Positions 58,796-62,451 are shown, counted from the first letter of the stretch. The stretch is DNA of 64,000 bases from a virus (IMGVR_UViG_3300036785_000296:10005-74004); one strand, 5' to 3'. Program-made: numbers and translations. The notes: generated by a model not told the origin, from the sequence alone.

Positions 58796-61700
58796 TCCCA
58801 GTCCGCCATGATCTTCCTCACCGGAGGCAGATGCTCGGCCTTGGCGAGGTCGAACCAGTACTGGCCCCACTTCTGGAGCGGCTTCGGCAGCGCGTCCACG
58901 CCGCGCGTCACCATCATGTAGAACAGCTCGGCCGTCGCTTCCTGCGGCTTCGTCGCCGCGTAGCCGCTGACGTTCGACTGGAGCCACGAGCCGGCGTGCC
59001 GCGTCCAGTTCTCTCCCCAGGCGCCGGTCAGCTCGCGCTCAAGCTCCCTGCCGAGCGTCGCCGTCATCGTCGTCTCCGAGAGGATGTCGAGAACGTGCCC
59101 GAACTCGTGGATCGCCGAGGCGCGCATCTCGTAGCTGGCGAGTTGCTCGGGCGTCGCATCCTTCATCTTCGACATCTCGACCGCCATCATCGGGGTGAAC
59201 GCATGCACCCCGTGCGCCTGGGCGGGCTTCGAGTTGGCGTTGATCAGGATGAACTGGTCTCCCTCGCCGTTGTTGACCGTCTCCATGACGACGCCCTGGT
59301 CGAGGTCTTGGGTCGCCTCGCCGGCGCCGAAACTGGTCGCCCCGCCTTGCGCGCGCAGCGACGAGTAGGCGACGCCGATCTCCTCCTTGATCTTGTCGGC
59401 CAGCGCCCCCAGGCCCTTCGAGCGCAGCACGCCGACCGCCATATCGAAGCCGCGCGCCGCCGCCATCATCCGCGCCGGGTCCTTGGGCGGCGTATCGTCG
59501 GCGCCGAGCCATTCGCGCGCGGCGACCGGCACCCAACGCACGAGGTAGCCCGCCCGCCGCAGCTCGCTCTTCGGCTCGACCACCGCCTGCTCGAAGGCTT
59601 CGTGCTCAGCCCTGTGCTTGGCTTCGTAGCTCTTCTGCCAGCGCTCGGCGCGCTCGGAGCGCCGGTTGAACTCAGCCTCTTCGGCGGCCGGCGTCAGCTT
59701 CTCCGGCTCGGTGTGGACGTGGATCGTCGGGCCGCCGCCGAAGCTGCCCGAGCCCTTCACGGTGAACTCGCCGCCGCCGGGCCCCTTGGCCTTCCTGGGA
59801 TGCTCGCGCTCCTCCCAGGCGTCGCCCTGGTGGACGTGCAGGTAGACCTGGGCGTCGTGCGTCGGCAGCTCCAGGCCCACCAGCTTGGCGACGTCCTCGG
59901 GGCGCGGGTTCTCGCCCAGCCTGTCGTGGATCGTCTCGAACAGCGTCAAGAGGCCCGCGAGGTTCTCGTAGGTCTCGGCCAGCTTGGCGAGCCCGACGTA
60001 GCCCTTCGGCTGGTACATCGCCGCCAGCGCGTCCAGCGTGATCTCCGGGTGCTTGCCCAGGAACGCGCGGATCGCCCCCGCCTTGGCCAGCAACTCGTCG
60101 CGGAAGTTCGAGGTCTTCTTGCCCTGCGCGGCCAGCGACGCCGCCCAGGTCACCGCTTGCAGCTCGCGCGGCTCCCAGCGCATCTGCTTGGCCCACGCCA
60201 GGATGATCGCCTTGCCGACCTTGTGCTGAACATCGGAGACGCCCGAGCCCTCGTAGCCCTCGAACAGGAAGCGGCCCATGTGCCGGTCAATCGGCGTGCC
60301 GGTGGGATCGCCGCTGAGCGCCTTGTCGAACTCCGAGACCTTCGGCCCGCTGATCGGCAAGCCGTGCTGTAGGTTGTTGAGCTGCACTAGCCACGCAGGC
60401 AGCAGCTTGTAGCCGTACTCCTTCTCAAACTCCGGCGGCGTCGGCCAGCGCACCGCCGACACGCCCTTCGGCAGATCGGGGAACTGGCCGCCGCTCAGCA
60501 GGTAGGTCATCAGGTCGACGCCGACGACGACGTTCTGCTTGGGCGCGTTGTTGATCGAGGCGATGGCCAGCGCCTTCTCGAACTGCGGCTCCTGCTTGCC
60601 GAACAGCTCGCGCGCCAGCGGACGGTGATCCTCGTACCACGTCTTCCAGCTTTCAGCCGCCGCAGCCGCCGCCATCGCCCGCTCGATGTCTACCCTGACC
60701 CCCACGCCCTTCGCGGGCGACTTCGGGTGCTGGGTCTTGTAGGCGGCGACCGCCTTCTCGGCCGCTTCCTGGGCGACCGCCAGCCAGGACGACTTGCCGG
60801 TGGGATCGCCATGCTCCAGCGTCCACGGCGCAGTCGGCTTCGGCGCAGGCGGATGCACCTCGACGTGCGTCGTCGGACCCTCGTGCGGCGTCGTGATGTG
60901 GACGCCGCTGAGCTGGCCGCCGGTCCCCTTCGGCGCGAACCGGCCAGGGAAGTGCGAGCCGATCTGGCGCGGATGCTCGGCCTCCACGAACACCTCCTGA
61001 TCGCCGACATGGAAGTGGAAGAGGCGCTGCCCGCTCAGCTCGGCTTGTCGGACGGCTCGGTCTTGGGTTTCGGCGAGGGCCTTAGCCCACCGATCACGAA
61101 GCCGCCCCCACTCTGCGGGTCCCACTCGATCTCCGGCGGCAGCGATGAGGGCCTCGTAGGCTTTTCGTCCTTCGGCTCGCTGTTCGGCATCGCTCGTCCC
61201 CTCGTAGTGCTCGGCGCCGATGAACTCCGCATCGCCCGGCGTCGCCCGGAACTTGGCCTTGTGGCTCCTGGCGTAGGTGGCCACGCCCTGCGCCAGTGAT
61301 CCGTCCGTGTCCGCTATGTAGACCATCGCGCCGTTGGCGGTAGGCACAAGCGTATGATTTTCCAGCCCATTCCCCAAGAGCGCGCGGTGGATGTCGTCCA
61401 GCGAGCCGGTGGCGAGGCCCGAGTACATGATCCCTTTGCCCGCCGGGTTCGCCGCGAAGCTCAGCACCGCCTTCTGCTGCCCGAGCCACCCCTTCATCGC
61501 CGCCGAGAGCCTAAGCTGCTCGGGCGTGGCGGCCGGCGCGATCATCACCGTCGTGCTCTCGGCCCCGTCCTTCCAGGCCCCGATGGCGCTCTTCTCGGAC
61601 TTGTTCGAGATACCGACCGTCAGGTCGACGTCCTCGGCCGCCGCCTGGAAGAGCTTGTGCCTGCGGCTGGCGATCTGCGCCTGGGCGGTCGCCATTGCGT

Positions 61701-62451
61701 GCGCGCTGGTCATCGGCGGCAACTCGCGGACGTTCGGGCTCGCGAAGGTCTCGCCGCCAGCGCCGCTGGTGAACTCCCCGCCGCCCGGCCCCCTGGCCCT
61801 GCGCGGGTGCTGGGCCTCGACCCACACATGCTGGTCGTCGTGCGTGGCAGCGCCCAGGTGGCTGAGCGCGACCTCGCGGATCACCTCGCCGCCGATCCGC
61901 CAGCCGGAGTCATCGAAGCTGTTGTAGCCGCGCGCCTTCAGCGCCGCCCTGACCTCCTTCAGCGGGATCGAGGCCAGGAGCTGCGCGTCGTAGCCGCCCT
62001 TGCCGAAGGAGAGCGAGATCGCGCACGGCTTCGATGGCCCGCGCGCGCGGAAGCCGACGCCCGGCTCGAACCCGCCGCCGCGATGGGCGATCATCGGCTT
62101 GTACGGGCCGACCGGCTTCCTGATCGTCGCCGTGAAGACATTGATGTGGCTACCCGAGCCGCCGACGCCCTGCGGCGAGTCGAAGTCGTCCACATGCGCC
62201 AGATGCTCGGCGACGCCGTAGCTGTTCCCCGTATTGCGCTCGGTCAGGTGGCCTTCGCCCTCGGACCCCAGGCGGAACATCAGGAATGGCTTGCCCGGCT
62301 CCGGCACGCCATCCAACTCCGGCGGCACCAGCTTGCGGGTGGCCTCGCCGCTGCGCGCTTTCAGCAGCTCGCCCGCCCACTTGCCGCCCGGATCGCGCGC
62401 CTCGCCAGGATCGAAGCCCGCGTCGACGTGCAGGAAGACCCGCCCGCTCAT
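58792..62451 (-). CDS. Polyvalent multi-effector protein (tag-delimited modules: ART-like?, SAM-lyase-like, HhH glycosylase-like, zincin metallopeptidase)
   Basis: Repeated ExxHPR..G.F tags; GAWKDGAE..QQKAVL; WY..GPKV..F..IDRH..QAVTW; HEFGH..SGYA..E..AE. Confidence 0.75.
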   Translation of the reverse strand: MSGRVFLHVDAGFDPGEARDPGGKWAGELLKARSGEATRKLVPPELDGVPEPGKPFLMFRLGSEGEGHLTERNTGNSYGVAEHLAHVDDFDSPQGVGGSGSHINVFTATIRKPVGPYKPMIAHRGGGFEPGVGFRARGPSKPCAISLSFGKGGYDAQLLASIPLKEVRAALKARGYNSFDDSGWRIGGEVIREVALSHLGAATHDDQHVWVEAQHPRRARGPGGGEFTSGAGGETFASPNVRELPPMTSAHAMATAQAQIASRRHKLFQAAAEDVDLTVGISNKSEKSAIGAWKDGAESTTVMIAPAATPEQLRLSAAMKGWLGQQKAVLSFAANPAGKGIMYSGLATGSLDDIHRALLGNGLENHTLVPTANGAMVYIADTDGSLAQGVATYARSHKAKFRATPGDAEFIGAEHYEGTSDAEQRAEGRKAYEALIAAAGDRVGPAEWGRLRDRWAKALAETQDRAVRQAELSGQRLFHFHVGDQEVFVEAEHPRQIGSHFPGRFAPKGTGGQLSGVHITTPHEGPTTHVEVHPPAPKPTAPWTLEHGDPTGKSSWLAVAQEAAEKAVAAYKTQHPKSPAKGVGVRVDIERAMAAAAAAESWKTWYEDHRPLARELFGKQEPQFEKALAIASINNAPKQNVVVGVDLMTYLLSGGQFPDLPKGVSAVRWPTPPEFEKEYGYKLLPAWLVQLNNLQHGLPISGPKVSEFDKALSGDPTGTPIDRHMGRFLFEGYEGSGVSDVQHKVGKAIILAWAKQMRWEPRELQAVTWAASLAAQGKKTSNFRDELLAKAGAIRAFLGKHPEITLDALAAMYQPKGYVGLAKLAETYENLAGLLTLFETIHDRLGENPRPEDVAKLVGLELPTHDAQVYLHVHQGDAWEEREHPRKAKGPGGGEFTVKGSGSFGGGPTIHVHTEPEKLTPAAEEAEFNRRSERAERWQKSYEAKHRAEHEAFEQAVVEPKSELRRAGYLVRWVPVAAREWLGADDTPPKDPARMMAAARGFDMAVGVLRSKGLGALADKIKEEIGVAYSSLRAQGGATSFGAGEATQDLDQGVVMETVNNGEGDQFILINANSKPAQAHGVHAFTPMMAVEMSKMKDATPEQLASYEMRASAIHEFGHVLDILSETTMTATLGRELERELTGAWGENWTRHAGSWLQSNVSGYAATKPQEATAELFYMMVTRGVDALPKPLQKWGQYWFDLAKAEHLPPVRKIMADWE

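Follow-up and report, generated by a model that had tools for sequence, protein, structure and literature searches.

A SAM-lyase-like module in a portal-linked phage polyvalent protein belongs to a large unannotated domain family

The virus contig IMGVR_UViG_3300036785_000296 is a 74,004-bp IMG/VR genome with direct terminal repeats, an estimated completeness of 100% (CheckV), and a G+C content of ~68%. The stretch analyzed here (the window, 64,000 nucleotides) corresponds to its bases 10005-74004, and positions are counted from the first base of the window. On the minus strand, positions 58792..62451 translate as a 1219-amino-acid (aa) open frame whose product, P0001, is a modular protein of the polyvalent type. 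The portal protein gene (62448..63998, minus strand; PF06381, E 1e-86) lies directly upstream and reaches the window end, and its stop codon and the ATG of P0001 share 4 nt (ATGA). The subject of this report is one module of P0001, D2, which spans aa 229-465 (61057..61767, minus strand). A sequence-only reading of the window had proposed a divergent S-adenosylmethionine (SAM) lyase at 61080-61750. That span is equivalent to aa 234-457 and fits the D2 envelope derived here, and the peptides quoted in its support are all present in P0001 (SRRHKLFQ at aa 262-269, AIGAWKDGAESTTVM at aa 289-303, and LRLSAAMKGWLGQQKAVLSF at aa 313-332).

P0001 consists of four modules split by a repeated boundary tag, and D2 is the module between the second and third tag copies. 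Within P0001, the tag takes the form h-x-h-H-h...(E/Q)-H-P-R...G-x-G-G-x-F at ~aa 205-230, 483-508, and 874-899, and the N terminus bears a variant of it; its overall form is (hydrophobic/His strand)...(D/E/Q)(H/P)PR(2-9 residues)G-x-(F/W)-T. The copy upstream of D2 (HVWVEAQHPRRARGPGGGEFTSG) lies at 61762..61842 and the downstream copy (VFVEAEHPRQIGSHFPGRFAPKG) at 60928..61008. Further copies of this sequence repeat occur at 62368-62436, 59755-59835, and 58570-58650, all on the minus strand, the last of which opens the zeta-toxin-like protein encoded downstream. The association of tag and D2 extends to unrelated phages: in 108 of 215 full-length copies of D2, a tag ends no more than 40 residues upstream, and in 76 it ends within 10. 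Small relatives of 230-300 aa are made of the tag and D2 alone. A literature search on the tag gave nothing relevant; we consider it a candidate signal for cleavage or for capsid loading. The modules of P0001 also include a zincin with the motif HEFGHVLD and a weak match to DUF7178, so that several unrelated effector-type domains share one polypeptide encoded beside the portal gene, as is expected of a polyvalent protein.

D2 is a discrete, real domain. A phmmer search of 1.84 billion cluster representatives with aa 229-510 found 782 relatives at E <= 1e-3, 415 of them at E <= 1e-10, and the matched ~230 residues occur at any position in proteins of 200-3000 aa. Almost all of these proteins come from uncultured phages. 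In IMG/VR, 88 loci encode a D2 relative, and the best 80 of these were used for locus comparisons. Among cultured phages, the whole of P0001 was without a match in 50,697 phage records (tblastn). Relatives of D2 were found in 2 of 185,579 prokaryotic species genomes, both times on a contig of a soil metagenome-assembled genome, and because there are just these two loci, they offer no clue to the host. A word-indexed homologue search with D2 returned 2 matches. No match to D2 was seen in Pfam (including its LPD families), PHROGs, or NCBIfam, and searches of the PDB by sequence and by profile stayed at noise level.

The domains that accompany D2 are diverse. Among 80 longer D2 relatives scanned with Pfam, the partners were DUF7178 (18), portal families (~13), ADP-ribosyltransferases (9), MuF (5), zeta toxin (4), Acb1 (3), NUDIX (3), and 2H phosphoesterase, Tpt1, and HINT (1 each). 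D2 often directly follows the portal or MuF domain. Acb1, which acts against the cyclic oligonucleotide-based antiphage signaling system (CBASS), thus occurs in the same protein as D2 in three relatives. The frequent presence of DUF7178 beside D2 suggests a functional pairing. Given its variable position, the proteins composed of tag plus D2, and the varied fusions, we regard D2 as a cargo cassette that is interchangeable among polyvalent proteins, as that class is understood in PMC5512222. A canonical SAM lyase was absent within ~8 kb of D2 in the 80 related loci; we do not take this as evidence, as canonical modules are rare anyway. No match to PF23780, the canonical SAM lyase family, was found anywhere in the 74-kb genome.

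Conservation in the family was assessed with an alignment of 191 distinct D2 domains. Five residues are fully invariant: G291, W293, E298, Q326, and R425. The first three form part of a hairpin motif, G291-A-W293-K-D-G-A-E298-S-T300 (61552..61581, minus strand), in which G, W, and E are kept in 191/191 domains and position 300 is Ser or Thr in 95%. The invariant Gln begins the segment Q326-K327-A-V-L-S-F (61456..61476, minus strand), which lies at a helix-to-strand junction (the B-loop position). D2 has 24 Gly, 14 aromatic, 15 Glu, and 9 Gln residues; a single residue of each kind is invariant, and these four are the motif residues (product of the fractions, 2e-5). Expressed as a loose pattern, G-x-[YWF]-x(3,12)-E-x-[ST]-x(18,35)-Q-x-x-[VIL][VIL], the motif occurs once, at the D2 site, in the 71,662 residues of the six-frame open reading frames (ORFs) of >=100 aa in the window.

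These residues recall those of phage T3. The sequence-only reading had relied on a motif of T3 SAMase and related lyases (G-x-(Y/W)...E, then a helix and Q-x-x-V-L), which we confirmed in T3 gp0.3 (AJ318471): the protein reads ...LTGCYREAISSAPTEEKTVRV...NEWEQDCVLVY and contains G55-C-Y57, E68-K-T70, and Q94-D95-C-V-L-V. It had also remarked that Lys follows the conserved Gln in D2 where T3 has Asp, and this is indeed what the two sequences read.

An AlphaFold2 model of D2, made with 26 relatives as the alignment, has a mean predicted local distance difference test (pLDDT) score of 87.6 and a predicted template modeling (pTM) score of 0.83. It shows two ferredoxin-like lobes followed by a helical tail. 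Its elements run beta(5-9), helices(21-50), beta(57-65), beta(68-77), helix(82-95), beta(100-106), beta(112-120), helix, beta, beta, helix, and beta(172-184), and then long helices. In the model, lobe 1 (aa 233-348; 61408..61755, minus strand) is a SAM-lyase-like ferredoxin lobe of the order beta-alpha-beta-beta-alpha-beta-beta. Lobe 2 (aa 340-412; 61216..61434, minus strand) is a second beta-alpha-beta-beta-alpha-beta unit with near-invariant H355, H366, T367, and P370. The C-terminal helices (aa 421-472; 61036..61191, minus strand) carry the invariant R425 and near-invariant Y432 and W448.

We compared the model with 48,161 PDB representatives by VIA-align, a search independent of Foldseek. 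The top match was the SAM lyase Svi3-3 (6zm9_A), with Z 7.7 and 3.0 A rmsd (root mean square deviation) over 103/129 residues at 16% identity. T3 SAMase (7ock_L) ranked 6th (Z 6.7, 121 residues), and a SAM-AMP lyase (9gab_D) ranked 12th, matching lobe 1 with Z 5.3. Realignment of the top 1000 Foldseek matches placed AcrB at Z 8.2, the Svi3-3 apo structure (6znb) at Z 8.1, and T3 SAM lyase (8bb1_E) at Z 7.1. In the Foldseek search against the PDB itself, T3 SAM lyase chains had a probability of 0.92 and target-normalized TM-scores of 0.50-0.53.

To put these values in perspective, a model of a genuine T3-type SAM lyase (pLDDT 86.7) aligned with Svi3-3 at only Z 6.2, rmsd 4.5 A, and 9% identity, and for that model Svi3-3 was level with the PII-like SbtB, LarC2, and CutA. 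D2 is therefore at least as near to each validated SAM lyase as those two are to each other. Among viral structures in BFVD, D2 first matched 17 polyvalent proteins (E 1e-10 to 4e-4, 10-17% identity) and then small proteins of ~125-165 aa, mostly from T7-like phages and including the 'SAM hydrolase' of Vibrio phage Vc1. Sixteen entries of the BFVD top 50 are common to D2 and the T3-type model. Two of these 16 are polyvalent proteins, matched at E ~1e-5 by D2 and at 0.01-0.03 by the T3-type model.

The D2 and T3-type models have an identical order of secondary structure through the fifth strand, with the motif residues at the same places. In both, Gly-x-aromatic ends the first hairpin strand and Glu-x-Ser/Thr begins the second. 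By the register of secondary structure, E298 occupies the third position in the second hairpin strand, as E68 does in the T3-type model. Q326 stands two to three residues ahead of the strand that follows the second helix, as does Q94 of T3, and hhalign pairs these two residues.

The closest structural relative, Svi3-3, has been characterized in detail. Gly56, Glu69, and Gln104 are the sole strictly conserved residues among active SAM lyases (Guo et al., PMC7877911). In Svi3-3, Tyr58 packs against the sulfonium and gamma-carbon, while the ribose is contacted by Ser71; all of these residues lie on or near the beta5-beta6 hairpin, and the mutations Y58F and E105Q cost only 5-fold and 3-fold of the activity, respectively (PMC7877911). 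Across its two entries (6ZM9 and 6ZNB), Svi3-3 matches D2 with Z 7.7-8.1 and rmsd 2.8-3.0 A over 103 residues. The two share a beta-alpha-beta-beta-alpha-beta core, Gly-x-aromatic and Glu-x-Ser/Thr on the hairpin strands, and a Gln before the last core strand, such that Gly56, Tyr58, Glu69, Ser71, and Gln104 would correspond to G291, W293, E298, T300, and Q326 of D2. They differ in that Svi3-3 is a single-lobe homotrimer of 125-146 aa with an intersubunit active site, whereas the 237 aa of D2 include another ferredoxin-like lobe and a tail of helices. D2 also has a hairpin loop that is 6 residues shorter, with Trp in place of Tyr58 and Lys in place of Glu105, and HMM comparison detected no sequence similarity between the two.

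T3 gp0.3 (7OCK and 8BB1; PF23780) matches with Z 6.7-7.1 across 121-122 residues, and its G55-x-Y57, E68-x-T70, and Q94-x-x-V-L-V would be equivalent to G291-x-W293, E298-x-T300, and Q326-x-x-V-L-S of D2. The T3 enzyme is expressed early and separately, has 152 aa, and also inhibits MetK via heteropolymers, whereas D2 is embedded as a cassette within a late, portal-linked protein and has Lys for Asp95.

SAM-AMP lyases, known from CorA-associated type III CRISPR systems and as the phage protein AcrIIIB4 (9GAB; PMC12255297), have a PII-like fold. Structural conservation between SAM and SAM-AMP lyases is limited to two residues, the Glu that ends the T-loop and the Gln of the B-loop (PMC12255297), and both are kept in D2. 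The SAM-AMP lyases are trimers, and their T-loop is longer than that of D2; in lyases this loop has 10-12 residues and encloses the substrate (PMC12255297).

A SAM-lyase-like fold and site in D2 are plausible, and D2 is probably homologous to SAM lyases. We tentatively read it as a cargo enzyme that is a lyase of SAM or of a SAM derivative, an assignment to which we give somewhat less than an even chance. A number of observations, set out in the following four paragraphs, weigh against this assignment.

The first concern sequence comparison with the T3 family. PF23780 (S-AdoMet_lyase; membership cut-off, 28 bits) was silent on D2 at E values up to 10 and on 26 relatives, and a local hidden Markov model built from 18 T3-type sequences had no match in 230 D2 proteins and ORFs. 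With hhalign, D2 aligned to the T3 family with a probability of 0.3% and E ~0.2, over 12-19 columns around Q-x-x-V-L-V. The greedy alignment was collinear across 104 columns, pairing G291/G55, W293/Y57, and Q326/Q94, yet its E value was 0.12. None of the alignments of D2 or lobe 1 with 18 or 94 T3-type sequences, whether local, greedy, or global, was significant. By these sequence comparisons, D2 is not a member of PF23780 (the T3 type) and forms a separate, more divergent family. The sequence-only reading had named structure and profile comparison with T3 SAMase and Svi3-3 among the means of checking its proposal. The structural half came out in its favor, with a ferredoxin-like AlphaFold model, Svi3-3 at rank 1, and T3 SAMase at rank 6, but the profile half did not.

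The motif itself also calls for caution. The loose pattern appeared in 73 of 5000 shuffles of P0001 (1.5%), so the motif alone is only mildly unusual; it gains weight because its four residues are the invariant Gly, aromatic, Glu, and Gln of the family. The shuffles are what speaks for a chance motif in a stretch of polyprotein that forms no domain, an explanation that deserves almost no credence. The size of the D2 family (782 homologues), the confidence of the model, and the conservation that makes the motif coincide with family-invariant positions refute it.

The structural matches are also less exclusive than their ranking suggests. AcrB-type porter domains scored Z 6.6-7.5 in the VIA-align search, ACT and GGDEF domains scored ~5-6, and AcrB porter subdomains were level with the SAM lyases at Z ~7-8 while spanning more residues (154-160). 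The D2 model does have the ferredoxin-like beta1-alpha1-beta2-beta3-alpha2-beta4 fold of the solved lyases, at a level of resemblance that AcrB porter domains equal. The tool itself notes that models lacking clear relatives typically reach a best Z of 7-8, and Foldseek found no match for D2 below E 1e-3 in the PDB. The equivalence of D2 and lyase residues was, moreover, set by secondary-structure register rather than by superposition. It is possible, though we consider it unlikely, that D2 is a noncatalytic tandem ferredoxin-like module, serving in capsid-internal or portal-associated packing or as an adaptor or chaperone, and that its likeness to lyases reflects fold convergence and a coincidental motif. 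Ferredoxin-like tandems are very common, with AcrB porter, ACT, RRM, and GGDEF domains at Z 5-8; sequence profiles provide no link to lyases; and D2 is frequently found right behind portal or MuF domains. Yet the invariant W, E, Q, and R and near-invariant D, K, H, H, and Y persist across members that are 30-40% identical, which is typical of a ligand or active site, and all three SAM(-AMP) lyase representatives fall within the top 12 of 48,161 chains. D2 also occurs alone behind a tag, in the 230-300-aa proteins, and far from portals in effector chains of 1000-3000 aa. As for AcrB and other RND porter subdomains (8QZT and 3W9I), they share tandem ferredoxin-like lobes with D2 and align with both of its lobes (Z 7-8.2, 154-160 residues), but they are parts of membrane transporters, are ~11% identical, lack the D2 motif, and have no biological tie to phage cargo. 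The resemblance most likely reflects a common shared arrangement.

The putative pocket differs as well. The gap from W293 to E298 is 4 residues in 191/191 D2 members versus 10 in T3, so the T-loop falls short of the length seen in lyases. The aromatic residue of Gly-x-aromatic is always Trp in D2 and Tyr in lyases, and the residue after the Gln is Lys or Arg in 99% of D2 domains versus Glu105 in Svi3-3 and Asp95 in T3. Because Trp replaces Tyr and Lys/Arg replaces an acidic residue, a different, perhaps anionic, ligand is hinted at. Known lyases offer no counterpart to lobe 2 or the helical tail, nor to the conserved residues found there (near-invariant H355, H366, T367, Y432, and W448 and invariant R425). 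Together, the short loop, the Trp, the Lys/Arg, and the extra residues suggest that the pocket has been rebuilt, perhaps with lobe 2 replacing the trimer neighbor, or that the ligand is a different one. The proposal of a divergent SAM lyase thus stands as to predicted fold, top structural match, and invariant motif, and lacks significant similarity to the T3 family in sequence or profile, a T-loop of lyase length, and the lyase residues at the Trp and Lys/Arg positions.

These same features raise the possibility that D2 keeps the SAM-lyase/PII-like scaffold but binds or acts on another small molecule, probably anionic, such as a nucleotide second messenger or a nucleotide-like compound, as an enzyme or a sponge among counter-defense cassettes. 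We consider this somewhat doubtful. The basic residue where lyases have Glu/Asp, the Trp for Tyr, the truncated T-loop, and the additional residues of lobe 2 and the tail (an invariant Arg and near-invariant His and Tyr) are in line with it. In PII-like proteins, the same loops are binding sites for nucleotides, ATP and c-di-AMP among them (PMC12255297), and the fusion partners of D2 include the nucleotide-signal degraders Acb1, NUDIX, and 2H phosphoesterase. On the other hand, the Glu, Gln, Gly-x-aromatic, and Ser/Thr kept in D2 are lyase-specific residues, and the canonical PII proteins, CutA, and SbtB are outside the structural top 50 of D2 but inside that of the T3-type model. The basic residues of D2 might, as a matter of speculation, suit a phosphate-bearing lyase substrate.

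If D2 is a lyase of SAM or a SAM derivative, it would act as one cassette of a phage polyvalent (multieffector) protein encoded after the portal. Lobe 1 would adopt the ferredoxin/PII-like fold of phage SAM lyases with the residues that define the active site retained, E298 taking the catalytic Glu69/E71 position and Q326 the Gln104/Q108 position. We infer that the substrate would be SAM, or a SAM-derived sulfonium such as SAM-AMP, bound and cleaved via the lyase mechanism. As a result, SAM-dependent defenses such as type I restriction-modification (R-M) and bacteriophage exclusion (BREX), or the SAM-AMP signal, would be starved. D2 would be packaged in the capsid along with the portal-linked protein, might be freed at the boundary tags, and would reach the cell together with the DNA. 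A fuller scenario would make D2 the founder of a very large SAM-lyase-derived clade, in which lobe 2 replaces the trimer neighbor to give a monomeric cassette, Trp and Lys replace the Tyr/Glu pair with retuning for SAM or a phosphate-bearing sulfonium such as SAM-AMP, and the tag loads D2 for injection as an anti-R-M, anti-BREX, or anti-CRISPR-III enzyme. That all of these parts hold jointly seems improbable to us.

The sequence-only reading had also supposed that the enzyme is delivered from the virion. We propose virion carriage from the portal-coupled position of the gene, from relatives in which D2 is fused to portal or MuF domains, and from the shared tag; the gene context of D2 fits it. 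P0001 resembles the polyvalent proteins described by Iyer et al. 2017 (PMC5512222) in that a single late, virion-linked polypeptide combines many effector domains unrelated to one another, in its HExxH zincin, and in the association with portal, MuF, ADP-ribosyltransferase, and zeta-toxin-like kinase fusions. The main text of that work does not contain the terms SAMase, S-adenosylmethionine, or AdoMet and so names no SAM-lyase domain. Such carriage has a precedent in cyanophage S-CREM2, where mass spectrometry detected a virion-associated SAM hydrolase (PMC10665884).

Should D2 be a functional relative of the SAM lyases, that family would grow by hundreds of sequence clusters, which stem from uncultured phages of mostly soil type, and would acquire a new two-lobed architecture. 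SAM lyases are a small, highly divergent family, known as early gene products of T3-like phages, from a few environmental clones, and as the SAM-AMP lyases associated with CRISPR. D2 would also be a clear case of SAM depletion carried as virion cargo instead of being expressed early, which, if true, bears on the means by which phages evade type I restriction, BREX, and SAM-AMP signaling in the first seconds of infection. Even with another substrate, D2 would remain a frequent cargo cassette that has a plainly conserved putative pocket and is unannotated in Pfam, PHROGs, and NCBIfam.

Other modules of P0001 and genes of the window are of related interest. The HEFGHVLD motif lies at aa 1115-1122 (59086..59109, minus strand) in the C-terminal module (58795-59679), for which no Pfam match was found. 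It is an HExxH zincin motif with an Asp three residues beyond, the arrangement reported for phage-type polyvalent-protein metallopeptidases (Iyer et al. 2017, PMC5512222), and by its motif the module could process the polyprotein. The third module (aa 530-895; 59767-60864, minus strand) is the one with the weak match to DUF7178 (E 4e-4, below the cut-off).

The next gene downstream of P0001 encodes the zeta-toxin-like kinase (57343..58677, minus strand; PF06414, E 2.5e-19) that begins with a boundary tag. Its zeta-toxin/AAA_33 kinase domain covers aa 254-408. A GGAGG Shine-Dalgarno sequence followed by an ATG at 58671 suggests that the true start of this protein is two codons past the listed GTG. 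Far from the portal gene, the peptide DGAVRPEHRAMQGKF is encoded at 43976-44005 (minus strand); we take it to resemble the motif that is conserved in minor head proteins of the MuF/SPP1 gp7 type, and a MuF-like gene may therefore lie in that region, distant from the portal gene.

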